Below, piece after piece: positions 11,476 to 25,917 of a stretch of 64,000 nt of DNA. Numbering within the stretch: the stretch's first letter is position 1; every line of letters begins with the position of its first letter. The position numbers and the translations under genes are program-made. Source of the DNA: an uncultured Chitinophaga sp. GTDB taxonomy: Bacteria > Bacteroidota > Bacteroidia > Chitinophagales > Chitinophagaceae. The stretch spans positions 752,696 to 816,695 of the forward strand of contig CAZQSZ010000001.1 of assembly GCA_964596345.1 (NCBI GenBank), written 5' to 3'. A model generated the notes under the pieces. The model had not been told where the DNA came from, ran no database searches, and saw nothing but the letters and a program-made list of their open reading frames with translations.

Positions 11476-12111
11476 ATGGCACTACGTCTCGGGGATGTTG
11501 CTCCCAACTTTAAAGCACAAACAACAGAAGGCGAAATAGATTTTTATGATTTCCTGGGAAACGGATGGGGAATATTATTTTCTCACCCCGCTGATTTCAC
11601 CCCGGTTTGTACAACTGAACTTGGGAAAACAGCCCTATTACAGGAGGAATTTGCCAAACGAAATGTAAAAGTGCTGGCAGTGAGTGTGGATCCGTTGGAT
11701 AAGCATATGGAGTGGAGAAAAGATATCAATGAAACACAACACTGCTCTGTTAGTTTTCCAATCATCGCTGATGAAGACAGGGTGGTTGCCCTGTTATATG
11801 ATATGATTCACCCGAATGCATCGGCAACTGCTACTGTGCGTTCTTTATTTGTGATCGGGCCCGATAAGCTAATTAAGCTGATGATCATTTATCCAGCTTC
11901 AACAGGTAGAAATTTTTACGAAGTATTAAGAGTGGTGGATTCATTACAGCTGACAGCGGGTTATAGCGTAGCTACACCGGCTGACTGGAAAGCAGGTGAG
12001 GATGTTATCGTTGTTCCGGCAGTGTCAACTGAAGATGCGATCAAGAAATTCCCTAAAGGGGTGAAGGTGGTTAAACCTTACCTGCGCTATACTCCACAAC
12101 CCAATCTTTGA
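11476..12111 (+). CDS. 1-Cys peroxiredoxin (Prx6-like)
   Basis: 211 aa. Contains FSHPADFTPVCTTELG, the peroxidatic-Cys motif, and the overall Prx6 length. Confidence 0.9.
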   Translation: MALRLGDVAPNFKAQTTEGEIDFYDFLGNGWGILFSHPADFTPVCTTELGKTALLQEEFAKRNVKVLAVSVDPLDKHMEWRKDINETQHCSVSFPIIADEDRVVALLYDMIHPNASATATVRSLFVIGPDKLIKLMIIYPASTGRNFYEVLRVVDSLQLTAGYSVATPADWKAGEDVIVVPAVSTEDAIKKFPKGVKVVKPYLRYTPQPNL

Positions 12112-12818
12112 TGCTGAGCAGCGAACAGATACAGGAAATAGAGAATAGCTCGTTGCCGGAAGCAATCCGTTTAATCACTGGTTTATTTCCCGGCGAAGTG
12201 GTCTTTTCTTCTTCTTTAGGACAGGAAGACCAGGTGCTCACGGATGTGATCTTCAAAAATGATCTGCCCGTTAAGATCTTCACGATCGATACGGGCAGGT
12301 TGTTTAATGAAACATATGAATTACTCGACCGTACCATTGCCCGGTATAAAAAACCAATACAGGTTTATTTCCCGGAAGCGGCTGATGTGGAAACGTTTGT
12401 AGCAGAAAAAGGGATCAACAGTTTTTATGAATCTGTGGACAACCGTAAGGAATGCTGCTATATCCGGAAAGTGATTCCATTGAACCGTGCATTGAAAGGA
12501 ACGAAGGTTTGGATTACCGGTTTAAGGGCTGAACAATCAAGCAACAGGCAACAGATGCCTATGATCGAATGGGCAGAAGATAAACAGTTATATAAGTTCA
12601 ACCCGCTGATGAACTGGAGCTATGATGAGATGATCAGTTATATCAATAAACATAATGTGCCCTATAACCGGTTGCATGATAAAGGATTTGTCAGCATCGG
12701 ATGTGCACCGTGTACAAGAGCCATTGAACCAGGTGAAGATGCAAGAGCCGGTCGCTGGTGGTGGGAAGCATCGCAGAAAGAATGCGGATTGCATGAAACA
12801 AAAGTGAAAGCGGGATAG
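12111..12818 (+). CDS. cysH: Adenylyl-sulfate (APS)-type assimilatory reductase, Fe-S-containing CysH
   Basis: ATG at 12111 overlaps the Prx stop (TGATG). Contains KECCYIRK plus IGCAPCTRA (the CC...CxxC cluster motif of APS reductases) and a C-terminal KECGLH. Confidence 0.85.
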   Translation: MLSSEQIQEIENSSLPEAIRLITGLFPGEVVFSSSLGQEDQVLTDVIFKNDLPVKIFTIDTGRLFNETYELLDRTIARYKKPIQVYFPEAADVETFVAEKGINSFYESVDNRKECCYIRKVIPLNRALKGTKVWITGLRAEQSSNRQQMPMIEWAEDKQLYKFNPLMNWSYDEMISYINKHNVPYNRLHDKGFVSIGCAPCTRAIEPGEDARAGRWWWEASQKECGLHETKVKAG

Positions 12819-12867
12819 TTTTTTTACCAGAATTGTTTGCAGTCAATGCAAACGTACAATAATAGTT

Positions 12868-13776
12868 ATGAGTAAATATCATTTGGATTACCTGGAGCAG
12901 CTCGAAGCAGAGAGTATTCACATTTTTCGTGAAGTGGCTGCTCAATTTGAAAGACCGGCACTCTTATTCAGTGGTGGGAAAGATTCTATTACGATGGTGC
13001 ACCTGGCCAAAAAAGCATTTGCGCCGGGAAAAATACCTTTTCCATTAGTGCATATTGATACCGGGCACAATTTCCCGGAAGCACTGGAATTCCGTGACTG
13101 GCTGGCCAACGAAGTCAATGCAACACTGGTTGTCAGGAAAGTGGAAGACACGATTAAACAAAAAAACCTGACGGAACCGAAAGGAAAATTTCCCAGCCGT
13201 AACTGGTTACAGACTTATACACTCTTAGATACGATCGAAGAATTCAAATTTGATGCTTGTATCGGTGGAGCCCGCAGGGATGAGGAAAAAGCAAGGGCAA
13301 AGGAAAGAATATTTTCTGTCCGGGATGAATTTGGGCAATGGAACCCCAAATTGCAACGACCAGAACTCTGGAATATTTACAATGGCAGAATTCATAAGGG
13401 GGAGAATGTGCGGGTATTCCCGATCAGCAACTGGACAGAACTGGACATCTGGAATTATATCCGCAAAGAAAATATTGATCTTCCGTCTATCTATTTTGCA
13501 CATGAGCGGCAGGTGATCGAACATGAAGGGCAGCTGGTGGCCATCAGTGAATTTGTGCAACCAGATGCAAGTGATGTGGTACTGACCAAACAAGTCCGGT
13601 ACAGAACGGTTGGTGATATGACCTGTACAGCTGCGGTTGAATCTGCTGCAGCTAACCTGGATGAAGTGATCAACGAGATCATAGCAACCAGGATCAGTGA
13701 GCGGGGAGAAACCAGGATCGATGATAAAGTAACGGAAGCAGCGATGGAAGATCGGAAGAAGAACGGGTATTTTTAA
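12868..13776 (+). CDS. cysD: Sulfate adenylyltransferase subunit 2
   Basis: 302 aa. Contains LLFSGGKDS (PP-loop) and is highly CysD-like throughout. Confidence 0.95.
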   Translation: MSKYHLDYLEQLEAESIHIFREVAAQFERPALLFSGGKDSITMVHLAKKAFAPGKIPFPLVHIDTGHNFPEALEFRDWLANEVNATLVVRKVEDTIKQKNLTEPKGKFPSRNWLQTYTLLDTIEEFKFDACIGGARRDEEKARAKERIFSVRDEFGQWNPKLQRPELWNIYNGRIHKGENVRVFPISNWTELDIWNYIRKENIDLPSIYFAHERQVIEHEGQLVAISEFVQPDASDVVLTKQVRYRTVGDMTCTAAVESAAANLDEVINEIIATRISERGETRIDDKVTEAAMEDRKKNGYF

Positions 13777-13837
13777 CTCCCAACTCCCTGAAGGGGGGCT
13801 TTGGGTAATATTCTTTGTAAATAAATTATCTAACTAT

Positions 13838-13904
13838 TTGGTCTTTCAGTGAGCGAAGGACCAATACAAATTAAGTTCCCTCCTGAGCTTGCCGAAGGAA
13901 GGGA
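13838..13904 (+). other. Two tandem related stem-loops in the cysD-cysN gap
   Basis: First: TTGGTCTTT-cagtgagcg-AAGGACCAA (13838-13864), 9 bp including one G-U pair. Second: TTCCCTCC-tgagcttgccgaa-GGAAGGGA (13876-13904), stem with a bulge. Both loops contain TGAGC and both hairpins contain CGAAGGA spanning the loop/3'-arm junction. Confidence 0.45.
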
Positions 13905-13913
13905 CAAAGTGAT

Positions 13914-15155
13914 ATGGATCTATTACGTTTTATAACTGCAGGTAGCGTCGATGACGGGAAAAGTACACTGATCGGGAGATTGTTGTACGATAGTAAGAAT
14001 ATTCTCATTGATCAGCTGGAAGCACTGGAAAAGTCAACGAAGAACAGGACCGATGGTTCTGTTGATCTTGCCTTGCTCACCGACGGGCTCAGGGCTGAAA
14101 GGGAACAGGGTATTACGATTGATGTGGCGTATCGTTACTTTACCACGCCGAAAAGAAAATTCATTATTGCCGATGCTCCCGGTCATGTGCAATACACCCG
14201 TAACATGATCACCGGTGCTTCTAATGCCAGCCTGATCATTGTTCTGGTAGATGCAAGACAAGGTGTGGTGGAACAGACAAGACGCCATTCTATTATCGCT
14301 TCTTTATTGAAGATACCGCATGTGGTGGTTGCTATCAATAAGATGGACCTGGTAGGGTACTCGCAGGATGTTTTCAATAATATCGTGATCGACTATGCTG
14401 AAGTGGCGAAGCAATTAGGATTAAAGAATGTGACCTATATCCCGATCAGTGCTTTGAATGGTGATAATATCGTGGACAGATCAGCGATCATCGACTGGTA
14501 TGATGGGAAGCCATTGCTGGAATTCCTGGAAGAAGTGGATACGGCACATGATATTGACCTGGATAATGCCCGTTTCCAGGTGCAGTTTGTAATCAGACCT
14601 CAGACGGAAGAATTACATGACTATCGTGGCTATGCCGGGAAGATTATCAGCGGTATTTATAAAAAAGGGGATAAGGTAAAAGTGTTGCCAGCTGGTTTGG
14701 AAACAACCATCAGTAAACTGGAAGTGGGTGGACAGGAAGTGGAAGAAGTATTTGCACCGCAGGCGGCCGTTATTCAACTGGCGGATGATATTGATATCAG
14801 CCGGGGCGATGCGATCATTAAAGCAGAAGATACACCTGTTGTCAGCAATGAACTCGAAGTTTTGCTCTGCTGGCTGGATGATAAACCTTTACAGGCGGGC
14901 AACAAGTATTATTTGCAGCACAACAGCCGTTTGGTGAGGGCCGTGGTGAAAAATATTGAATACAAACTGGATGTAAACACCCTTCAGCAACAGCCGGTGG
15001 AAGGAGGGGTAAAACTGAATGAAGTGGTCAAGGCCACGATCAGGACAGCATCAGCACTAGTGTATGATCCGTATGATCAATTTGTTGTAAACGGAAGTGC
15101 TATTCTTGTGGATGAAACAAGCAACAGTACGGTAGCGGCGGTGCTGCTGCAGTAA
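13914..15155 (+). CDS. cysN: Sulfate adenylyltransferase subunit 1 (GTPase); no fused APS kinase domain
   Basis: 413 aa. Contains GSVDDGKST (G1), DAPGH and NKMD. Confidence 0.92.
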   Translation: MDLLRFITAGSVDDGKSTLIGRLLYDSKNILIDQLEALEKSTKNRTDGSVDLALLTDGLRAEREQGITIDVAYRYFTTPKRKFIIADAPGHVQYTRNMITGASNASLIIVLVDARQGVVEQTRRHSIIASLLKIPHVVVAINKMDLVGYSQDVFNNIVIDYAEVAKQLGLKNVTYIPISALNGDNIVDRSAIIDWYDGKPLLEFLEEVDTAHDIDLDNARFQVQFVIRPQTEELHDYRGYAGKIISGIYKKGDKVKVLPAGLETTISKLEVGGQEVEEVFAPQAAVIQLADDIDISRGDAIIKAEDTPVVSNELEVLLCWLDDKPLQAGNKYYLQHNSRLVRAVVKNIEYKLDVNTLQQQPVEGGVKLNEVVKATIRTASALVYDPYDQFVVNGSAILVDETSNSTVAAVLLQ

Positions 15156-15196
15156 ATTTTTTTATCTAATTAGTCTATTAAAAAAGTAGAATATTA

Positions 15197-15991
15197 ATGA
15201 ATAACAAGGGCAGCGTAATACTGGCAGGAGCAGGTCCCGGTGATGCAGAACTCATTACTATAAAATTGCAAAAGCGGTTAAGGGAAGCTGATGTGATCAT
15301 TACTGACCGGCTGGTGAACCCAATGATCATTGAAGCACATGCAAGCCCTGAGGCCATAGTTATTGTTGCAGGTAAGCAGGGTTATAATGATGCTTCTGTT
15401 TCGCAGGAAGATATCTGCAACCTGATTGTTGTTCATGCACTGGATGGAAAAAATGTATTACGACTTAAAGGTGGTGATGTGGCTTTTTTCAGTAATGTAC
15501 TGGATGAACTGAAAGTGTTGGAGGAAAACAATATTTCGTTTGAGATCATCCCGGGTATTACCGCTGCATCAGGCGCATCTGCTTATGCAGGTATCCCGTT
15601 AACTGCCCGTGGATATGCCCAGGCTGTACAATTTATCACTTTCAATCCAACTAATTTTTATAGTTCAGACAAATGGAAAAGCCTGGCAGGCACGAGTGAT
15701 ACACTGGTATTTTACATGGCCGCCAAGAATATAGCTGACCTCGCTGAATTATTGTTGCGTTATACCCGGAAGCCTTCCACCCCGATGGCAGTGATTGAGC
15801 AGGCAACTACACAACATCAGCAGGTTCATATAAGCACCTTAAAAGATTGTGCCAGTGATTTTGCCGGAAAACACTTCAGTTCCCCTTCCCTGGTTATTGT
15901 AGGAGAAGTGGTGGAGTTACACCAGTCATTTAACTGGTTTGCCGCAGGGGGAACCGGTTCTGTATTCAATGAATTGATAACTGCTAAATAG
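15197..15991 (+). CDS. cobA: Uroporphyrinogen-III C-methyltransferase (SUMT)
   Basis: 264 aa. Contains GAGPGDAELITIKL...ADVIITDRLV and IPGITAASGA motifs. Confidence 0.85.
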   Translation: MNNKGSVILAGAGPGDAELITIKLQKRLREADVIITDRLVNPMIIEAHASPEAIVIVAGKQGYNDASVSQEDICNLIVVHALDGKNVLRLKGGDVAFFSNVLDELKVLEENNISFEIIPGITAASGASAYAGIPLTARGYAQAVQFITFNPTNFYSSDKWKSLAGTSDTLVFYMAAKNIADLAELLLRYTRKPSTPMAVIEQATTQHQQVHISTLKDCASDFAGKHFSSPSLVIVGEVVELHQSFNWFAAGGTGSVFNELITAK

Positions 15992-15996
15992 TAGCT

Positions 15997-17694
15997 ATGA
16001 TCGGCGAAGGAAGATTAAAACAATTACGCCAGTTTCTGGAAAGCTACTCACAGGAGGAGCTGGTCTGGATCAATGGCTACCTGTCTGGTATCGTGGCTAA
16101 CCGGAATACGAATGGCCATGAAACAAAGCAGGCTGTAAAAAAAATAAACCTTTTATTCGGCACCGAAACCGGGAATTCAAAAAGATTGGCCACTCAATTA
16201 GCAGGAGTAGCCAAAAAGAAAGGCATTCATGTAAAATTGACTGATCTAAGTCAGTACCGCCTGGCTGATCTTTCAAAAGAAGAATATTTTTTTGTCGTGA
16301 TCAGTACACAGGGCGAAGGGGAACCTCCCATCCCGGCGAAGAAATTCTATGATCATTTACAGGAAACTACTTTATCGCTACCGGGTCTGAAGTATAGTGT
16401 ACTTGCACTGGGTGATTCATCTTATCCCCTGTTTTGCAAAACTGGGGAGGAGGTGGATGCAAAGCTTGAACAGTTTGGCGGGGCAAGAGTAGTTCCGTTG
16501 CAAAAATGTGATGTTGATTATGAAGAAGACGCTGCCAGCTGGTTTGATAAGGTGCTGGCCATAGTGGATCAACAGACAGCAGTAACCCCGGTGCCTGTTG
16601 CAGTGAAGCCAGTAGAGAAAAAGGCGACAGGGAAAAAATATTACCACGGGAAAATTCTAACGAATATCAACCTGAATGACAGGGGCTCTAATAAACAAAC
16701 GTACCATATCGAGATCGGAGCGGATGAGCCGATAGCTTATGAACCCGGTGATACAATTGGCATTGTACCTGCTAATAGAAAAGAAGTAGTGGATAGAATC
16801 ATTGCTTTAACTGGAATTGATCCTTCTTTGGAAATAAGTACAGCAAAAGCAACAGCAGCAGTAAGGGAATTGCTGACCTATAACCTCAATATCTGCTACC
16901 TGCTTACATCAACAGTTAAAAAATATGCGGCTATTACTGAGCAGGAAATTCCGGATATAAGAATGGACCTTGTTGATCTGCTGAGGATATACCCGCTAAA
17001 AAATACAGGCCAGTTTATAGAAGTACTCAAATCATTAATGCCCATAGCACCCCGGTTATATTCTGTATCATCTTCCCCTGCAGCACATGGAGAAAATGAA
17101 GTGCATATCACCGTGGCAAGAAACCAGTTCCTGGCGCAGGACGAACACCGCTTTGGTTTGTGCAGCGAATTCCTGGGCGATCAGCCAGTTGGGACGACAA
17201 TGAGTTTTTATGTGCACAAGGATAAGAATTTCAAACTCCCGGCTTCTGATAAAGATGTGATCATGATCGGACCCGGTACCGGTGTGGCACCTTTCCGGGC
17301 CTTCCTTGCACACCGGGATGCAACAGGTGCTGTTGGCAGAAACTGGTTCTTTTTTGGTGAACAGCATTTCCTGACTGATTTTTTATACCAGTCAGAAATG
17401 CAGCAATATGTGCAAACAGGAGTTTTAACAAATATTGACCTGGCGTTTTCAAGAGACCAGCCAGCGAAGATTTATGTACAGCACCGGATGCTGGCAAAAG
17501 CGGCAGAATTATATCAATGGATCAGTAGCGGAGCCTACCTCTTTATCAGCGGTACCAAAGACCCGATGAGTAAAGATGTGGAAGCTGCCCTGTTGCAGAT
17601 CATTGAAAAGGAAGGGAAAAAAACAAATGACGAAGCCCGGCAATACCTGGAGCAATTGGAAAAGGACGGAAGATATGAGAAGGATGTGTATTGA
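15997..17694 (+). CDS. cysJ: Assimilatory sulfite reductase (NADPH) flavoprotein alpha component
   Basis: 565 aa. Flavodoxin domain (LFGTETGNSKRLA) plus an FAD/NADPH domain (RLYSVSSS, GPGTGVAPFRAF, C-terminal YEKDVY). Confidence 0.85.
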   Translation: MIGEGRLKQLRQFLESYSQEELVWINGYLSGIVANRNTNGHETKQAVKKINLLFGTETGNSKRLATQLAGVAKKKGIHVKLTDLSQYRLADLSKEEYFFVVISTQGEGEPPIPAKKFYDHLQETTLSLPGLKYSVLALGDSSYPLFCKTGEEVDAKLEQFGGARVVPLQKCDVDYEEDAASWFDKVLAIVDQQTAVTPVPVAVKPVEKKATGKKYYHGKILTNINLNDRGSNKQTYHIEIGADEPIAYEPGDTIGIVPANRKEVVDRIIALTGIDPSLEISTAKATAAVRELLTYNLNICYLLTSTVKKYAAITEQEIPDIRMDLVDLLRIYPLKNTGQFIEVLKSLMPIAPRLYSVSSSPAAHGENEVHITVARNQFLAQDEHRFGLCSEFLGDQPVGTTMSFYVHKDKNFKLPASDKDVIMIGPGTGVAPFRAFLAHRDATGAVGRNWFFFGEQHFLTDFLYQSEMQQYVQTGVLTNIDLAFSRDQPAKIYVQHRMLAKAAELYQWISSGAYLFISGTKDPMSKDVEAALLQIIEKEGKKTNDEARQYLEQLEKDGRYEKDVY

Positions 17695-17723
17695 TGATGC
17701 GAAAACGCAATTGTACAACAGGT

Positions 17724-17760
17724 GAACAGAATTACAGGACGATGAAGAGTGCGACGCAAC
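17724..17760 (+). repeat. Copy A of a repeated intercistronic element
   Basis: GAACAGAattacaggACGATGAAGAGTGCGACGCAAC. The core 17739-17760 matches 53418-53439 at 21 of 22 positions. Confidence 0.7.
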
Positions 17761-17819
17761 AGGTGTTGAGCAGGATTATATAAGCTGGCAGCATGATCAT
17801 TTAAAGAGCAATTTACAGT

Positions 17820-19484
17820 ATGAGCGAAAAAAATAATTTATCAGCAGTTGAACGGATCAAGACATCCAGTGATGGTTTGCGGGGCACGTTGAAAGAAAGT
17901 CTGCAGGACGGGCTGACCGGTGCCTTGAAAGAAGATGATCAGTCGCTGATCAAATTTCACGGCCTGTACCAGCAGGATGACAGGGACAGGAGAGAAGAAC
18001 GTACGGAGAAAAAATTAGAATGGTTATATTCTTATATGATCCGGTTACGGCTTCCCGGAGGTTTTTTAACAGCAGAGCAGTGGATCGGTTTACATCATAT
18101 AGCTGGTGAGCATTCAACTGGCACCATCAAGATCACCACACGCCAAACTGTACAACTGCATGGAATAGTAAAATCACATATTAAACCAACGATACAGTCT
18201 TTCAATACCCTTCATCTTGATTCTATTGCTGCCTGCGGTGATGTGAACAGGAATGTAACCTGCAGTGCTCACCCCAGAGAATCAGCGATACATGAACAGG
18301 TGTTTCAATATGCAGATAAGATCAGTGTGATGGCTTTACCCAAAACAAGATCTTATTATGAAATATGGCTGGATGAAGAACAGATAGCAGATAAGAAAGA
18401 AGATGATCCTTTATACCAGGACCGCTACCTGCCCAGGAAATTCAAAGTAGGTATTGCCATTCCGCCGAATAATGATGTGGATGTACTGACCAATGATGTC
18501 GGCTTGATTGCTATCATTGAAAATAATGAACTGAAAGGATTCAATATTGCAGCCGGTGGCGGTTTAAGTTCCACGCATGGCAACCCCGCAACTTATGCAA
18601 GACTGGCAACGGTGTTGGGATTTGTGGATACAGAAGAAAAAGTATTGAAAGCAGTATATGAGATCATGACCATTCAACGGGATCATGGTAACAGGAGTGA
18701 CCGGAAACTGGCCCGGCTGAAATATACGATCGATAAGCTGGGTGTTGATCCGTTTAAGGAAGAATTAGAGAAACGATGCGGATTTAAACTTGAGCCGGTA
18801 AAACCCTACACGTTTACTACAAGAAAAGATCATTATGGCTGGAAGCAGAATCATGAAGGCAACTGGTATTATACCGTGTTTGTGGAAAATGGAAGGATAC
18901 TGGATGATGAAAAACTGCCACTGAAAACAGCCTTACTGGAAATAGCCAAAACAGGTAAGCTGAATTTCCGGTTTACAGGCAATCAGAATGTAATACTTGC
19001 AGATGTAAAAGAGGCAGACAAAAATGAGATTGATGCATTATTGCAGCAGTTTAATATCAGTGATCATACTGCTGCTGCGGGGGCACTGCGCAAAAATGCA
19101 ATGGCTTGTGTGGCATTCAATACCTGCCCGTTGGCATTGGCAGAGGCACAGCGTTACCTGCCTTCCCTGGTTGATAAGATCGAACCTTTACTGAAGAAGC
19201 ATTCAATTGAGCAAGAAGAGATCATATTACGAATGACCGGTTGCCCCAATGGGTGCGGCCGTTCCCCGGCTGCAGAAATTGGTTTTGTTGGAACCGCCTA
19301 TGGACAATACAACCTGCATATTGGAGGAGACAGGATCGGTGAAAGATTGAATAGAAAATATAAGGACAGCCTGGATGAGCCGCAAATACTGGAAGAGCTG
19401 GATCAATTGTTTGCTGTGTATAGTGCGAAAAGAAACGCCGGGGAAACCTTTGGTGATTTTGTCATCCGTGAAAAAATAGTGTGA
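17820..19484 (+). CDS. cysI: Assimilatory sulfite reductase hemoprotein beta component (siroheme/[4Fe-4S])
   Basis: 554 aa. Cluster/siroheme Cys motifs [11 protein letters not shown] and [11 protein letters not shown]. Confidence 0.92.
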
Positions 19485-20749
19485 TGTTTTTGTACGACAA
19501 TTATTTTAGACAACGCCTGCAGGAACTAAAGGATAACGGCTCCTACCGCTATTTTTTAGAAGTGAACAAGAGTGCCCAGCACTTTCCGCATTTCTATTAC
19601 CAGGATGCCAGTGGGATGCAACGTTCAGCGGTGAACTGGTGCAGTAATGATTATCTCTGTATGAGTACAAGGGAAGAGGTAATCGCCAAACTTGGATTTG
19701 TTACACACCGCAGTGGCACCGCCAGCAGTGGTACCCGAAATATTTCAGGTACGACAGTGCATCATAAAGAACTGGAAACAACTTTGGCGGCCTGGCATAA
19801 AAAAGAAGCCGCCTTATTATTCAACGGAGCTTATGCGGCAAATGTAACAACACTGCAAACATTGGGCAGGCATATTCCCGGGCTGATCTTTATTTCAGAT
19901 GAGCGGAACCATGCTTCCCTGATCGAAGGGATGAGAGGAGCAGGTAATGAGAAAAGAATTTTCCGTCACAATGATATGAAAGAGCTGGAAAGAATTTTGA
20001 ATGCCATTCCGCTGCAAACGCCCAAGTTGCTGGTATTTGAATCGGTGTATTCCATTTCAGGAACCATCGCCCCGGTAAAAGAGATCATCGCATTGGCAAG
20101 AAAGTATAACGCCATGACTTATGTTGATGAAGTCCATGCCGTCGGGCTTTATGGAGAAACAGGGGCCGGTATTTTTGAACAGGAAAAACTGCAGGATGAA
20201 ATTGATATCCTGAACGGGACCCTCTCGAAGGCAATTGGTGTGTTTGGCGGATATATTGCAGCTTCAGCTGTGATCATTGATTTTATCCGTAGTTATGGAA
20301 GTGGGTTTATTTTCACCACTTCATTGCCCCCTGCTGTTTGCAGTGCTGCTACTAAAAGTATACAGTTGATTCAACAGCATCCGGAATGGAGACAGGAGTT
20401 CAGGGCTAATGTTCAGTTGCTTCGAAAAGCCCTGCAGGAAAACCAGGTTGAGTTCCGTACTAACGATTCACATATCACCAGTGTACCAATCAGGGATGCG
20501 GTCCGGTGCAGGCAACTGGCCAATGAACTGCTGCAAAAACAGGGAGTGTACCTGCAGCCGATCAATTATCCAACTGTACCCAAAGGCGAAGAATGCCTCC
20601 GCATTATTGTAACGGCAAGGCACCTGGTAAAGCATATTAATCATTTGGCATTTAGTTTATCTAAAATAATTCATGGAGACGATCAGGCTCATAGGACGGG
20701 ATTCGCGGCTTTCGCTGCTGCAACTGGAGATAGTGAAGCAGCGTATTGA
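19484..20749 (+). CDS. hemA: 5-aminolevulinate synthase homologue (C4/Shemin-type, alpha-oxoamine synthase family)
   Basis: ATG at 19484 overlaps the cysI stop (TGATG). Motifs closely track alphaproteobacterial ALAS as I recall it: [62 protein letters not shown] (PLP lysine), [14 protein letters not shown] and [19 protein letters not shown]. Confidence 0.8.
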
Positions 20750-22196
20750 AACAGCAGCGAGCGGAATCAAAGTGGAGATCATTGCCCGCAGCAGCCGGGG
20801 CGATGAGCTGCAGGATGTGCCTTTGCAAACCGTGGAAGGAAGCGATTTTTTTACACAGGATATTTTTGATGCCCTGGAGAATGGAACTGCCGATATTGCT
20901 GTTCATTCATTAAAAGATATGAGCAACGAACATTTTTTTGGAACCAATAAGTTTGCCGTGGTGGACAGGGATGATACCAGGGACGTGGCCATCTTCCAAA
21001 AAGATATTCAACGAAAAATCACAGAAGGAAAACAGATCGTTATCGGAACCTGTTCCCCCAGGCGGGAAGAAATGGCAATTGGTTTTTTGCAAAAGGCTTT
21101 ACCGCAGTTGCATACCAATTTCCGGGTGGTTACAAAAACGATCCGGGGAAATGTGGATACAAGATTACGAAAACTGGAGAGTGGTGAGTATGATGGTATC
21201 ATCCTCGCAACAGCCGGGCTAAACAGATTATTGAGAAGCTGTGAAGATGCGGGAGTAAAGGAGTTATTGAAAGATAAAAAGCTGATGTTGTTACCGCTGG
21301 TAGAATGTGTGCCTGCTCCCTGCCAGGGAGCTATTGTGGCAGAAGCAGTTCCCGGAAACAGCAGGGCTATAGAATTGCTCAATATCATCAACAATAGCAG
21401 CTTGATGATTGATTGTACGAGGGAGAAGAAAGAAGCCTTGCAATATGGCGTGGGTTGTTTGCAAAAATTTGGAGTTACTACATTTAATCATGATGGTAAG
21501 AAGAGTTTGTATGCAGCGGGTAAGAATAGCAAAGGACAGTCATTTAGCAAATGGGAAGGATTACCGGAGTTGGATATTGCTACTAAGAAATTTTTCAGCA
21601 GTACAGATTATATGGGTGAATTTTTTGGTTACGACTATCATGCCGAGACAATTCAAATCAATGAACCGGTAGTTTACGTTGCCAATTATAAAGCAGTACA
21701 TCATAATAGTCTTACCGGCCAGTTAAGTGAAAAGAAAGTCTGGGCGGCCGGCACCAAAACCTGGTATGAACTGGCTAAGAAAGGAGTCTGGGTAGAGGGA
21801 TCTGCAGATGCTTTCGGGCTGGAAACATTGATCCCGGTTTGGCAAATGCCACTGATCGGGATTGAGAAAGAGGAAGTAGCTGTGATTACAAATGACCAGT
21901 CAAAGACGAACTGGCAACAAAAGAACTGGAAGGTTTACAGCACTTATTCTTTACTGGAAGAACAATCGGTGGTAATAAGTGAGCAGATCAAAGAAGCGGA
22001 TGTTATCTTCTGGACAAGTTTCCGGCAGTACCAGCAGTATAAAGAACTGCTAAAAAATAATGTGCAGCATGTTTGCCCTTTTGGGGAAACAGCAGAACAA
22101 TTCAAAGCAGCAGGTTTGAAACCTGTAGTATTTCCAAACATAAAAGCATTTCAGCAATGGAGACAAACTTCTGGCCAGTTACCCAGCGTCGCCTGA
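20673..22196 (+). CDS. hemC: Hydroxymethylbilane synthase with a ~210-aa C-terminal uroporphyrinogen-III-synthase-like extension
   Basis: Residues ~1-295 carry HemC motifs: [52 protein letters not shown] and cofactor Cys VGCLQKF. The tail resembles HemD segments ([43 protein letters not shown]). Confidence 0.8.
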
Positions 22197-23152
22197 GAGC
22201 AGGTACACATATAAGAGAGCTGATAGCCTCGGTAAAACTCAATCACAAGAGTTTTATCCAGCCGGTATTTGTGGAGGAAGGGATCAGCTCTCCAAGAACA
22301 GTGAAGGGGTTAAATGAGGTGCAGGTAGAAATGGCGGATTCAATAGTATATAGTATGGAACAGGATATCAGGAACGGGATTTCAAAATTCCTGTTATTTC
22401 CTGTACCAGCAACGAAAAAGGATAAGGAGTTTGATTTCTCATTTGCTGCTAATGTGATAAGGCGGGTAAAGGAAAATTTCGGTGAAGATGCATGGCTGGC
22501 TGCAGATGTTTGCTTATGCAGTTATACTACGCATGGGCATTGTGGTATTCTAAACCAGGATCACACACAGCTCTTAAACAGCAAAACAGTGGAACTGTTG
22601 AGCCACTATGCTTCTTTATTGGCTAATGCCGGGGTGGATTGTATTGCGCCGAGTGATATGATGGATGGCCGTATAGGGGCGATCAGAAGCAAACTGGATG
22701 CGCTGGGGTATGAACAGGTAAGCATCATGAGCTATGCAGCAAAGTTTAGTTCGCAGTTTTACGGGCCTTTCAGGGATGCCTGTCATTCTGTTCCCAATTC
22801 AACTGGATTGAAAAACAGGAAGACATACCAGTTATCCCCCTTTACTATCAACGATGCACTGGCATCTGCCATGCGGGATGAAAAAGAAGGAGCTGATATA
22901 TTGATGGTAAAACCAGCAGCACTTTATACAGATATAATCGCAAAACTGAAGCAACAAACCTTAAAGCCGGTGGCAGCATACCATGTGAGCGGGGAGTATG
23001 CAGCTATTGAAGCGTTGGCGGAGAAAGGTTTGCTGGACAGGGAAGCAGCACATGTGGAGGTGTGGGCGGCGCTGCAACGCAGCGGGGCAGATATTATTAT
23101 TTCCTATGCGGCAAGAAATGCAAAAGAGTGGATCAACCAGGCAATCATTTAA
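22157..23152 (+). CDS. hemB: Porphobilinogen synthase (ALA dehydratase), Zn-type
   Basis: ORF 22073..23152 (TTG start) trimmed to the ATG at 22157, where homology begins ([14 protein letters not shown]...IQPVFVEEG). Contains the Cys-rich metal site DVCLCSYTTHGHCG, PSDMMDGRIG and the active-site MVKPA. Confidence 0.9.
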   Translation: METNFWPVTQRRLRAGTHIRELIASVKLNHKSFIQPVFVEEGISSPRTVKGLNEVQVEMADSIVYSMEQDIRNGISKFLLFPVPATKKDKEFDFSFAANVIRRVKENFGEDAWLAADVCLCSYTTHGHCGILNQDHTQLLNSKTVELLSHYASLLANAGVDCIAPSDMMDGRIGAIRSKLDALGYEQVSIMSYAAKFSSQFYGPFRDACHSVPNSTGLKNRKTYQLSPFTINDALASAMRDEKEGADILMVKPAALYTDIIAKLKQQTLKPVAAYHVSGEYAAIEALAEKGLLDREAAHVEVWAALQRSGADIIISYAARNAKEWINQAII

Positions 23153-23167
23153 AAGTTAACAGGACCG

Positions 23168-24688
23168 ATGGATAGTCATATAGATAAAACAGCCCCGGAA
23201 ACAAGTAACGGTGATGGTACAAAGAACCAGTTGTATCCTGTTTTCCTGAAACTGGAGCAGTTAAATATTTTACTGGTGGGAGCCGGTAATGTAGGGTTGG
23301 AGAAATTACATTCACTTTTGTCGAATTCTCCCCAGGCAAAGATCACGGTAGTGGCACCAGGGGTTAAAAAAGAAGTAAGGGAATTGGTACAAAAGCATCC
23401 TTCTTGCACAATTATTGAAAGGCAATTCCAGGAGGAAGATCTTGAGAATAAAGAGCTGGTTATTTTAGCAACTGATAATAAAGAATTACACCAGGATATC
23501 ACCCAACTCGCCAATGCCAACAAGATACTGATCAATGTGGCAGATACACCCGAACTCTGTGATTTCTATTTGGGCAGTATTGTGCAGAAGGGATTATTGA
23601 AGATCGCTATCTCCACCAATGGGAAATCGCCAACAGCAGCCAAACGTATCAGGGAAGTTTTGAATGAATCTTTGCCTTCAGAACTGGATGAGCTGATCAG
23701 TAACCTGAATAAGGTGCGGGGTAAGCTGAACGGTAATTTTGACTATAAAGTAAAAAAGCTGAATGCACTTACCAAAATCCTGGTAGATAAGGACAGCACC
23801 GTGGGTGAAAGAAGATGGCGAAAGATCGCTACCTGGTCCTTGGTCATTTTTGCCTCTATGCTTGTCGGGCATTTCATTTTATCTTATTTGCCTTTCCGGC
23901 AAATAGCAGATGATACGGTGGCGTGGTACGGTACATTGGATAAAAATTTTCACTGGATGGTGCTGGCTGGTTTTCTTGCACAAATGGTGGATGGAGCCAC
24001 CAGTATGGGATACGGAGTTACGAGTTCGGTTGTTTTACAAACGGCACAGGTAAGCCCTGCTGCCATTAGTGCCGGTATTCATACGGCAGAGATGTTTACT
24101 ACAGCTGCGTCGGGGTATAGTCACTATAAATTCAAGAATGTAAATAAAAAATTATTTAAGGCGCTGGTGATTCCAGGTGTTATTGGCGCTGTATTGGGAG
24201 CTTTATTATTAGTTTGGTTTGATGACACACATATTAAGTATCTGCGTCCCGCTATGGCTATTTATACATTGATGCTCGGCTTAAAGATATTCAGTAATGC
24301 GTTTCGTACTACCGGAAAGAGTAAATTCAAACGCTATGGCTGGCTGGCGGGTGCAGGTGGTTTCCTGGATTCATTCGGGGGAGGAGGCTGGGGACCCATT
24401 GTTACCTCCACACTGATAACAAAAGGAAGGACACCCAGGTATGTTATTGGTTCTGTAAGCCTGACCGAATTCTTTGTTACGCTGGCCAGTGCTTTTACAT
24501 TTTTTACGCTTATAGGTGTGCAAGGCTGGCAAATAATACTGGCATTGGTACTGGGAGGAGTTATAGCCGCACCTATTGCAGCGAAGCTGGCAGGTAAATT
24601 GCCTAAGAAAACCTCTTTCGTTTTATTAGGAGTTATTGTCGTTGCCTGGAGCACCAGGATATTAATTAATACCTTTATATCCCTATAG
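23168..24688 (+). CDS. Fusion of a precorrin-2 dehydrogenase/sirohydrochlorin ferrochelatase (SirC/Met8/CysG-N-like) domain to a TauE/SafE (TSUP) family membrane permease
   Basis: One uninterrupted 506-aa ORF. Residues ~25-215 contain YPVFLKLEQLNILLVGAGNVG and NVADTPELCDFYLGSIVQKGLLKIAISTNGKSPTAAKRIRE. Residues ~225-506 are multi-TM with Gly-rich TSUP-like motifs (MVDGATSMGYG, GGFLDSFGGGGWGPI). Confidence 0.7.
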   Translation: MDSHIDKTAPETSNGDGTKNQLYPVFLKLEQLNILLVGAGNVGLEKLHSLLSNSPQAKITVVAPGVKKEVRELVQKHPSCTIIERQFQEEDLENKELVILATDNKELHQDITQLANANKILINVADTPELCDFYLGSIVQKGLLKIAISTNGKSPTAAKRIREVLNESLPSELDELISNLNKVRGKLNGNFDYKVKKLNALTKILVDKDSTVGERRWRKIATWSLVIFASMLVGHFILSYLPFRQIADDTVAWYGTLDKNFHWMVLAGFLAQMVDGATSMGYGVTSSVVLQTAQVSPAAISAGIHTAEMFTTAASGYSHYKFKNVNKKLFKALVIPGVIGAVLGALLLVWFDDTHIKYLRPAMAIYTLMLGLKIFSNAFRTTGKSKFKRYGWLAGAGGFLDSFGGGGWGPIVTSTLITKGRTPRYVIGSVSLTEFFVTLASAFTFFTLIGVQGWQIILALVLGGVIAAPIAAKLAGKLPKKTSFVLLGVIVVAWSTRILINTFISL

Positions 24689-24741
24689 TATTGGGACGAT
24701 GAGTTTACCTTTGTCCTCTTTTTACAAGTAAGTCTAATTTT

Positions 24742-25917
24742 ATGGCGAAGCAACACCCGGAAACAAAGGCGATCCGTATTCAGACCAGGCAAACGGGCCA
24801 GAAAGAACATTCAACCCCGTTATTCCTGACCAGCAGTTTTACCTATGAATCAGCAGAGGATATGGCTGCCGCTTTTGCCGATGACTCACTGGAAGTGAAT
24901 ATTTATTCCCGTTTTTCCAACCCAACCGTTGATGAATTTATTATCAAGATCGCTACTCTCGAAGGGGCAGAAGATGGTATTGCCACCGGAACAGGGATGG
25001 CCGCAGTGTTTTCCACTTTCATGACTTTTTTATCCAAAGGAGATCATATCATTTCTGCTTCTGCGGTGTTTGGCTCCACTCATACCATCCTTACTAAATA
25101 TTTACCGAAATGGGGCATTGAGAGTTCTTATTTTGATATGAGCAAACCGGAAACTATTGCAGCATTGATCAAACCAACTACCAAAATGCTGTATATCGAA
25201 ACACCGAGTAATCCCGGATTGGATATTATTGACATTGAGTATGTTTCGGTGCTTTGCAAACAGCATAATATTTTGCTGGTAGTGGATAATTGTTTTGCTA
25301 CCCCGGCGGTACAGCAACCCATAAAATTTGGCGCTGATCTCGTACTACATTCTGCTACCAAATTTATTGACGGGCAGGGCAGGGTATTAGGTGGAGTGGT
25401 GGTAGGCCGGAAAGAACTGATCAACCCGATGTATTTATTTGTACGGAATACCGGCCCTTCATTGAGCCCGTTCAATGCCTGGGTGCTTAGTAAAAGCCTG
25501 GAGACATTATTCATCCGCATGGATAAGCATGCAACAAATGCGATGCAACTGGCTGTGGCTTTACAAAATCATCCGAAGATCGGTTCGGTAAAATATCCTT
25601 TCCTGGAATCACATCCGCAATATGCCATTGCAAAAAAGCAAATGAGTAATGGCGGTGGTATCGTCACTTTTGAATTAAAAGGGGGTATTGAAAGTGGCCG
25701 GAAGTTCCTGAATGCACTACAAATGCTTTCCATGACCAATAATTTGGGCGACAGTCGCAGCATCGCTTCGCATCCTGCTTCTACCACCCATTCCAAACTG
25801 ACAGAGGAAGAAAGGCAGTCTGTCGGGATAACGCCGGGATTAATCAGGCTTTCTGTTGGCCTGGAACATCCGGATGACGTGTTGCAGGATATTTTACAGG
25901 CGCTGAATAAGTGCTGA
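24742..25917 (+). CDS. metZ: O-succinyl/O-acetyl-homoserine sulfhydrylase (Cys/Met-metabolism PLP enzyme)
   Basis: 391 aa. Contains LFLTSSF, YSRFSNPTV, HSATKFIDGQGR (PLP lysine), LSPFNAW and NLGDSRS...HPASTTH, closely MetZ-like. Confidence 0.8.
   Translation: MAKQHPETKAIRIQTRQTGQKEHSTPLFLTSSFTYESAEDMAAAFADDSLEVNIYSRFSNPTVDEFIIKIATLEGAEDGIATGTGMAAVFSTFMTFLSKGDHIISASAVFGSTHTILTKYLPKWGIESSYFDMSKPETIAALIKPTTKMLYIETPSNPGLDIIDIEYVSVLCKQHNILLVVDNCFATPAVQQPIKFGADLVLHSATKFIDGQGRVLGGVVVGRKELINPMYLFVRNTGPSLSPFNAWVLSKSLETLFIRMDKHATNAMQLAVALQNHPKIGSVKYPFLESHPQYAIAKKQMSNGGGIVTFELKGGIESGRKFLNALQMLSMTNNLGDSRSIASHPASTTHSKLTEEERQSVGITPGLIRLSVGLEHPDDVLQDILQALNKC

Follow-up and report, generated by a model that had tools for sequence, protein, structure and literature searches.

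How members of the Bacteroidota take up sulfate for assimilation is mostly not established, and their cys gene clusters occur without CysPUWA. A 64,000-nucleotide stretch of DNA from an uncultured Chitinophaga sp. (contig CAZQSZ010000001.1, positions 752,696 to 816,695; hereafter the window) raises the question of whether a permease fused to an enzyme could fill this role. The open reading frame (ORF) call on the 64-kb window gives one uninterrupted frame of 506 codons on the + strand, with its ATG at 23168 and its stop at 24688, as an earlier note made from the sequence had described, and the motifs quoted there (GAGNVG, NVADTPE, MVDGATSMGYG and others) were all found in their places. The frame joins a siroheme-forming CysG-N/Met8-type domain to a permease of the TSUP/TauE family. 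The best overall explanation, to which we give a probability of roughly 0.55, is that the product would be a bifunctional siroheme enzyme and sulfate permease, the fusion fixing the co-expression of the two.

The protein is a true fusion, and its Pfam and NCBIfam scores exceed the curated cut-offs. Pfam assigned NAD_binding_7 (PF13241) to residues 25-137 (E 1.8e-27, 96.3 bits, cut-off 22.1), Sirohm_synth_M (PF14824) to residues 144-163 (E 2.8e-8, 33.5 bits, cut-off 25) and TauE (PF01925) to residues 265-493 (E 1.5e-32, 113.6 bits, cut-off 32.6), the last match spanning model positions 2-232 of 237. The NCBIfam model cysG_Nterm (TIGR01470) covered residues 23-191 with 120.9 bits (cut-off 62.3). 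The gene is laid out as follows.

23168..24688, + strand: whole fusion ORF, 506 amino acids (aa) (ORF call, Pfam, NCBIfam)
23225..23785, + strand: CysG-N/Met8p/SirC-type domain, predicted to be cytoplasmic, residues ~20-206, with a Rossmann fold followed by a central beta domain and, as C-terminal subdomain, three helices (TIGR01470, Foldseek, secondary structure of the AlphaFold2 (AF2) model)
23279..23296, + strand: NAD-binding GAGNVG, G38-G43 (motif position; alignment of 56 sequences)
23534..23554, + strand: NVADTPE, residues 123-129, in which N123, D126 and P128 are CysG N101, D104 and P106 (alignment to 1pjq)
23609..23632, + strand: ISTNGKSP, residues 148-155, in which S149/T150 are CysG S127/S128 and P155 is CysG P133 (alignment to 1pjq)
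23798..23887, + strand: linker transmembrane helix TM0, residues ~211-240 (AF2 helix, hydropathy)
23948..24682, + strand: TSUP/TauE permease core, residues ~261-505, two repeats (Pfam TauE, AF2 helices)
23987..24016, + strand: Gly-rich motif of repeat 1, VDGATSMGYG, residues 274-283 (motif position)
24365..24394, + strand: Gly-rich motif of repeat 2, LDSFGGGGWG, residues 400-409 (motif position)

Residue conservation was scored on an alignment of 56 fused homologues of 44-89 % identity, and the structure is an AF2 model with a mean predicted local distance difference test (pLDDT) score of 77.9, reaching 84-94 over residues 31-130.

We examined the N-terminal half against its characterised relatives. 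A sequence search of the PDB aligned residues 23-191 to residues 4-169 of Salmonella CysG, and Foldseek with the AF2 model retrieved CysG (1pjs_A, E 3.5e-9), SirC (3dfz_B, E 8.9e-8, template modelling score on the target 0.62) and Met8p (1kyq_A, E 3.9e-6); the CysG-B module of Salmonella and E. coli CysG, yeast Met8p and B. megaterium SirC have the same three-subdomain fold as the domain of the fusion. CysG N101, D104, P106, P133 and K27 correspond to N123, D126, P128, P155 and K46, all invariant in the 56 homologues. The Rossmann GxGxxG is likewise shared with CysG, G38 being invariant and G40 conserved in at least 90 %. In CysG, both activities require D104, while the tetrapyrrole is capped by P106, has P133 as its platform and is bound at its carboxylates by N101 and K27 (PMC7018833). 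A D-A-P-K loop is kept in the bifunctional CysG and Met8p, the monofunctional SirC having SSFS (PMC7018833); in the fusion this loop reads DTPE, i.e. the D-x-P form of the bifunctional enzymes. By profile, residue and fold tests, the N-terminal domain is a member of the CysG-N/Met8p/SirC family. It differs from CysG in its partner: in CysG the module is joined to a C-terminal SUMT (CysG-A), from which R260, R261 and D262 extend into the active site, whereas in the fusion SUMT is encoded by a separate cobA, as with Met8p/Met1p, and the C-terminal partner is a membrane permease.

Profile searches of the genome, which is 100 % complete, found no other convincing NAD_binding_7 protein, no CbiX/SirB and no CbiK, and the genome encodes a siroheme-dependent CysI, within the cluster of the fusion, that passes TIGR02041. 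Because the catalytic residues are kept and this is the sole convincing domain of its kind in a genome lacking CbiX and CbiK, we infer that it makes siroheme, and it is predicted to act as dehydrogenase as well as ferrochelatase in supplying CysI. The domain would then be an active, cytoplasmic, probably dimeric and NAD+-dependent precorrin-2 dehydrogenase/sirohydrochlorin ferrochelatase of the CysG-B/Met8p type, turning precorrin-2 from the neighbouring CobA into siroheme for CysI.

The C-terminal half is a TSUP member by profile and by repeat structure. The AF2 model shows a core of two repeats, each consisting of a broken helix, which bears the Gly-rich motif, and three long transmembrane helices; G276, Y282 and G283 of the repeat 1 motif and D401 and G405-G409 of the repeat 2 motif are invariant in the 56 homologues. 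The sequence search of the PDB gave no chain matching this half, no solved TSUP structure was found, and Foldseek returned a weak likeness only, to BacA/UppP (6fmt, E 0.014). The missing structural match reflects the absence of TSUP structures and not non-membership.

The topology and structure prediction proposed in the earlier note yielded TM0 followed by the two-repeat TSUP core. That note had called the C-terminal half polytopic, which holds for the core, but it had not set apart the extra helix TM0, which the AF2 model and hydropathy place ahead of the Pfam TauE region. Its Gly-His pair, G234-H235, recurs in many, not all, homologues. TM0 is also present in unfused orthologues (L012, L107 and L108); therefore, the enzyme was joined, on the cytoplasmic side, to the N-terminus of a TSUP subfamily in which this helix already came first. 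In the AF2 model only ~5 residues separate the last helix of the N-terminal domain from TM0. On an inside-to-outside orientation of TM0, the K/R-rich loops 321-328, 378-391, 418-425 and 476-481 are all cytoplasmic, and this placement is consistent with the positive-inside rule for a topology with the enzyme in the cytoplasm. The chain would thus leave the cytoplasm through TM0 and enter the TSUP core on the periplasmic side, and the whole would be a bifunctional inner-membrane protein.

What the permease carries was approached through its genomic setting.

11476..25917, + strand: co-directional cluster of twelve genes, the fusion being the eleventh (ORFs, profile matches)

The genes are, in order, 1-Cys peroxiredoxin, cysH, cysD, cysN, cobA, cysJ, cysI, 5-aminolevulinate synthase, hemC(-D), hemB, the fusion and an O-succinylhomoserine sulfhydrylase-like gene. 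The cysH is of the adenosine 5'-phosphosulfate (APS) reductase type (TIGR02055 above cut-off) and cobA occupies 15197-15991. The cluster covers all steps of two routes, sulfate to homocysteine and glycine to siroheme, and the TSUP half alone is a candidate for transport.

The association with sulfate assimilation extends well beyond this genome. Within 10 kb of 80 fused loci we found cysI in 66, cobA in 60, cysN in 54, cysD in 49 and cysH in 44. Four genomes sampled from one genus of the same class encode the TSUP separately, directly beside cysH; in the example inspected (L107) the order is TSUP-cysH-cysD-cysN-sir-cobA-sirC, with SirC at the far end. A locus of another family (L108) reads cysH-cysD-cysN-TSUP and has no SirC nearby. 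At four loci (L005, L007, L052 and L062) the gene, fused or with a relic, stands between cysD and cysN. As the unfused orthologues are still in the operon, the association of the permease with the cys operon is independent of the fusion.

The phyletic distribution tends to follow sulfate activation. Counted without regard to shared ancestry, CysD occurs in 31 of 31 fusion-bearing genomes among the 61 genera of the family, and the fusion in 0 of the 23 CysD-negative genomes. Two complete genomes (G002 and G012) have cysI and a standalone SirC, and lack both CysD and an orthologous TSUP. In an even sample of the phylum, the TSUP is present in 0 of 8 class-level genomes that have SirC and a NIR_SIR protein and no clear CysH, and in 19 of ~27 genomes with a clear CysH.

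Two relatives show that sulfate-activation clusters can carry an importer, the 3'-phosphoadenosine 5'-phosphosulfate (PAPS)-type clusters bringing their own SLC13-type permease: at L100 3092-4870 (G051) and L102 7822-9609 (G031), an SLC13/CitMHS permease with two TrkA_C domains is followed by cysC, cysD and cysN. Among TSUP-less relatives, alternative sulfate transporters beside cysDN were SLC13-type proteins and were found only in these two clusters; the other membrane ORFs beside cysDN encode lipid-synthesis enzymes, a sulfatase and DUF3810. Both PAPS-type clusters lie apart from the cluster with the assimilatory cysH-cysDN genes and probably serve sulfation.

The nearest experimental precedent is the CysY-CysZ pair of C. 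glutamicum (cg3113 and cg3112, in the fpr2-cysIXHDNYZ operon). CysZ is a TSUP/DUF81 protein whose gene adjoins cysY, which encodes the siroheme ferrochelatase; the permease is genetically required on low sulfate, for growth below 5 mM (PMC1266029; its role is also reviewed in PMC5840216). As in the window, a TSUP permease stands at the operon end beside a siroheme-completing enzyme. The two systems differ in that C. glutamicum has two genes and a CbiX/SirB-type class II chelatase, while the fusion is one polypeptide with a CysG-B/Met8p-type dehydrogenase-chelatase, and in that the TSUP of the fusion has the extra N-terminal helix TM0. In its predicted function, the fusion most resembles a CysY/CysZ pair collapsed into one chain.

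Considering this context, the permease half has a somewhat better than even chance of being a sulfate importer, perhaps of sulfite too, as in C. glutamicum. The TSUP core would be the uptake permease of the pathway, the counterpart of CysZ (Cg3112): sulfate would enter through it and be converted to APS by CysDN, to sulfite by the APS-reductase-type CysH, to sulfide by CysJI with siroheme, and finally be built into homocysteine.

Several points weigh against sulfate import. Substrate and direction are read from context for all members of the fusion family, and the TSUP family at large has a poorly resolved phylogeny, with low support around Cg3112, and substrates that are diverse and mostly untested (PMC5840216). 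The cluster may come and go as a block, and the phyletic counts, which disregard shared ancestry, are only a moderately strong argument. Relatives such as G020, G069, G079 and G190 have cysH, cysDN and SirC but no orthologous TSUP; therefore, the permease is not indispensable. In one genome (G210) the fusion is present with no CysH or NIR_SIR match at the thresholds used. Finally, the genome has other candidate anion importers. As the earlier note stated, neither CysPUWA nor SulP is encoded in the cluster, and the profile search gave no CysT/W match anywhere in the genome, but two SulP genes lie elsewhere. Its proposal that the permease is the sulfur-anion transporter of the cluster stands in so far as no other transporter gene is found there; a broader statement, that the genome has no other sulfate importer, was rejected. 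One SulP (C7:84548) could be the real sulfate importer. The other (G000:C1:524379-525545; L113 4358-5938) is flanked by a beta-carbonic anhydrase and DabA, which suggests bicarbonate rather than sulfate transport.

The opposite direction of transport was considered first among the alternatives. The TSUP half could export sulfite, or thiosulfate, as a TauE/SafE-like safety valve when siroheme or CysJI lags behind CysH, and the fusion would tie the valve to the step that it protects. The Pfam family takes its name from sulfite exporters, characterised TauE proteins are linked to sulfite efflux (PMC7315123), and the unfused orthologues adjoin cysH (L107), which makes sulfite, so that this adjacency fits an exporter too. 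TauE/SafE exporters (TC 2.A.102; Cupriavidus necator TauE) share PF01925, the two-repeat core and the Gly-rich motifs with the fusion, but their genes sit with desulfonation or sulfide-oxidation genes, whereas the fusion sits in a reductive assimilation operon. This exporter context is absent from the cluster and is better fitted by a second, unfused TSUP/TauE of the same genome (267 aa, 157.8 bits; G000:C4:232492-233247, L114 4462-5265 on the minus strand), which adjoins a protein with metallo-beta-lactamase fold and rhodanese domain, of the persulfide dioxygenase type, and a Crp-family regulator. A TSUP beside a persulfide dioxygenase is a known context of putative TauE-type sulfite/thiosulfate efflux (PMC7315123), and the second TSUP is probably the sulfite/thiosulfate efflux module of this genome. 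Export is also at odds with G002 and G012, sulfite reducers (cysI and SirC) without sulfate activation, from which the gene is missing, and with the C. glutamicum precedent, where the cys-operon permease is an importer; moreover, with an exporter in place of an importer the assimilatory operon would not be complete. We hold export by the fusion to be unlikely.

A different cargo was also weighed, namely thiosulfate, a sulfonate or the metal of the chelatase (Fe2+ or Co2+), sulfate then entering through SulP or an unrecognised system. It would agree with the diversity of TSUP substrates (PMC5840216), with the unassigned SulP (C7:84548) and with the full-pathway relatives that lack the TSUP. However, no desulfonation, sulfide-oxidation or thiosulfate-specific gene was found within the cluster, and the permease stays with cysH and cysDN where SirC is distant or absent (L107 and L108), which argues against a role in metal supply to the chelatase. 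TSUP proteins are not known to act as metal carriers. Another solute is thus improbable, and sulfate uptake remains the preferred reading.

The tether between the halves turned out to be labile. Standalone SirC genes follow cobA-cysJ-cysI in about ten genera. One standalone SirC (L006 219-968, minus strand, G030) has 249 aa and a hydrophobic C-terminal helix homologous to TM0 (…MVTGHILFSI); it looks like the membrane-anchored leftover of a truncated former fusion, and the same genome also has a relic-bearing TSUP between cysD and cysN (L005). At L111 6200-7999 (G248), SirC and TSUP share one frame with two stop codons between them (…EKNNF*FMVHFQSH*AIKLMEDK…), the result of fission, of very recent pseudogenisation or of a sequencing error in that assembly.

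In a further set of proteins, here called type B to set them apart from the intact fusions of type A, the enzyme half has decayed. They are 417-480 aa long, and the four examples taken from genomes have a permease half with 55-65 % identity to that of the window protein. The GxGxxG, the NVAD loop and the STNGKSP block are lost, and at most a weak NAD_binding_7 signal is left. Another intact SirC is present in three of the four type B genomes examined (G005, G030 and G042), and none was detected apart from the relic in the fourth, G037. Type B pairs share ~20 % identity in the N-terminal domain even with permease halves 70-83 % identical, whereas type A pairs conserve both halves about equally. 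In a tree of the permease domain, obtained by a quick search with approximate likelihood-ratio (SH-aLRT) support only, types A and B interleave, and at least 11 changes of each label are forced by well-supported branches; a single origin of type B was rejected on this basis. By these comparisons, the enzyme half decayed repeatedly once it was redundant, and the permease needs no intact partner.

Two side observations may be added. The closest relative of the window protein by permease half (78 % identity) is a metagenome protein of 467 aa, P0122, whose N-terminus has no Pfam match and by eye reads as a degraded uroporphyrinogen methyltransferase-like sequence (…GESVIRLVGDDMFLGS…IPVEIIPAL…) rather than SirC. 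In the window, the cysD-cysN spacer (13777-13913, 137 nt) is the site at which L005, L007, L052 and L062 carry the TSUP gene, and it could be the scar of a gene relocation.

The earlier note had the permease physically tethered to the last enzyme of siroheme synthesis. As a requirement, such coupling does not hold: the genes are separate and at opposite operon ends at L107, the pair is split at L111, and the enzyme half is decayed in type B. The tether looks dispensable. Given the split, the truncation and the repeated decay, the fusion is best read as fixing co-expression and not an obligatory physical coupling, and would be a 'Rosetta-stone' event of two operon partners.

The same lability weakens a conserved regulatory role of the N-terminal domain. 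Such a domain might be an allosteric gate, besides or instead of an enzyme, in which binding of NAD(H), precorrin-2 or sirohydrochlorin tunes sulfate influx to siroheme capacity. Parallels exist in the STAS domains of SulP and the TrkA_C domains of SLC13 carriers (L100 and L102), which, like the fusion, combine a secondary anion carrier with a soluble cytoplasmic domain and are encoded with sulfate-activation genes; those domains are regulatory and non-enzymatic, whereas that of the fusion is a conserved biosynthetic enzyme, N-terminal and attached through an added helix. The short link to TM0 would suit a gate, as would the type B proteins, which keep a cytoplasmic domain before TM0 after losing the catalytic motifs. 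Yet these type B domains, with the GxGxxG lost and with the divergence given above, look like decaying relics, and fully unfused orthologues have no such domain (L107 and L108). We consider the gate quite improbable, and a conserved non-catalytic regulatory role of the type B domains was largely rejected.

That the SirC domain is enzyme and gate at once, its occupancy throttling sulfate entry through the short link to TM0, is a long shot. If true, sulfite would never be made faster than siroheme-loaded sulfite reductase removes it, a cofactor-biosynthesis enzyme would be the regulatory domain of a transporter, and the type B domains would be remnants that keep the structural part.

The fused architecture itself is widely kept. 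The identical protein is found on 7 contigs, and the best 120 database homologues (72-97 % identity, ~490-520 aa) all have the three domains. The species-representative genome collection holds at least 588 loci with the fused form, from isolates and metagenome-assembled genomes (MAGs) of several orders, and thousands of fused proteins are present in metagenome and database collections from independent projects. The full-length fusion occurs in 28 of the 61 genera of the same family, relatives thus keeping it, which the earlier note had named as a check, and in 14 of the 251 genomes of the phylum sample. Fused genes, nearly all of them within a sulfate-assimilation cluster, were found, among others, in Chitinophagales (Niastella, Paraflavitalea, Chitinophaga, Niabella), Cytophagales (Hymenobacter, Rufibacter, Pontibacter), Flavobacteriales (Flavobacterium cauense, Chryseobacterium), Sphingobacteriales (Pedobacter albus, Mucilaginibacter) and, in Ignavibacteriota, in Ignavibacteria MAGs. 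With this conservation, which includes the linker and TM0, an error of assembly or sequencing that merged sirC with a downstream TSUP gene into a single frame is practically negligible as an explanation and was rejected, the two stops between the in-frame halves of G248 being the one feature in its favour.

As a separate observation, two otherwise full-length fused orthologues (G019:C1:367536-369008 and G095:C1:4164821-4166281) carry one in-frame TAA each, and they may be pseudogenes or assembly errors.

In the cluster of the window, the 5-aminolevulinate synthase gene (19484-20749; TIGR01821, 483.9 bits, cut-off 338.55) is start-stop coupled to cysI and is followed by hemC(-D), with its long C-terminal extension in hemC, and hemB. 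This ALAS-hemCD-hemB insert is present in only 5-6 of the 80 related fused loci (L019, L026, L043, L076 and partly L034).

The architecture is real, ancient and widespread; it is abundant in databases and seems unstudied. The earlier note had not recognised it as described; thousands of database proteins carry it, under the generic names 'TSUP family transporter' or 'siroheme synthase-like protein'. A literature search, with most subscription journals outside its scope, found no paper describing the fusion. The fusion is an uncharacterised variant of known parts and not a new kind of system. Its lability goes beyond what the earlier note had found and is new here: the intact, split, truncated and decayed-domain states form a clean series of fusion, fission and subfunctionalisation.

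For annotation, each current database name hides half of the function, and in genomes like this one the enzyme half would be the only siroheme route. For sulfur metabolism, the fusion family is a concrete and widely distributed candidate sulfate importer of Bacteroidota. It adds comparative support for a role of some TSUP proteins in sulfate import instead of sulfite export, an idea so far based mainly on one C. glutamicum mutant. The fusion is useful for annotation and offers a good way into the genetics of sulfate uptake in Bacteroidota.

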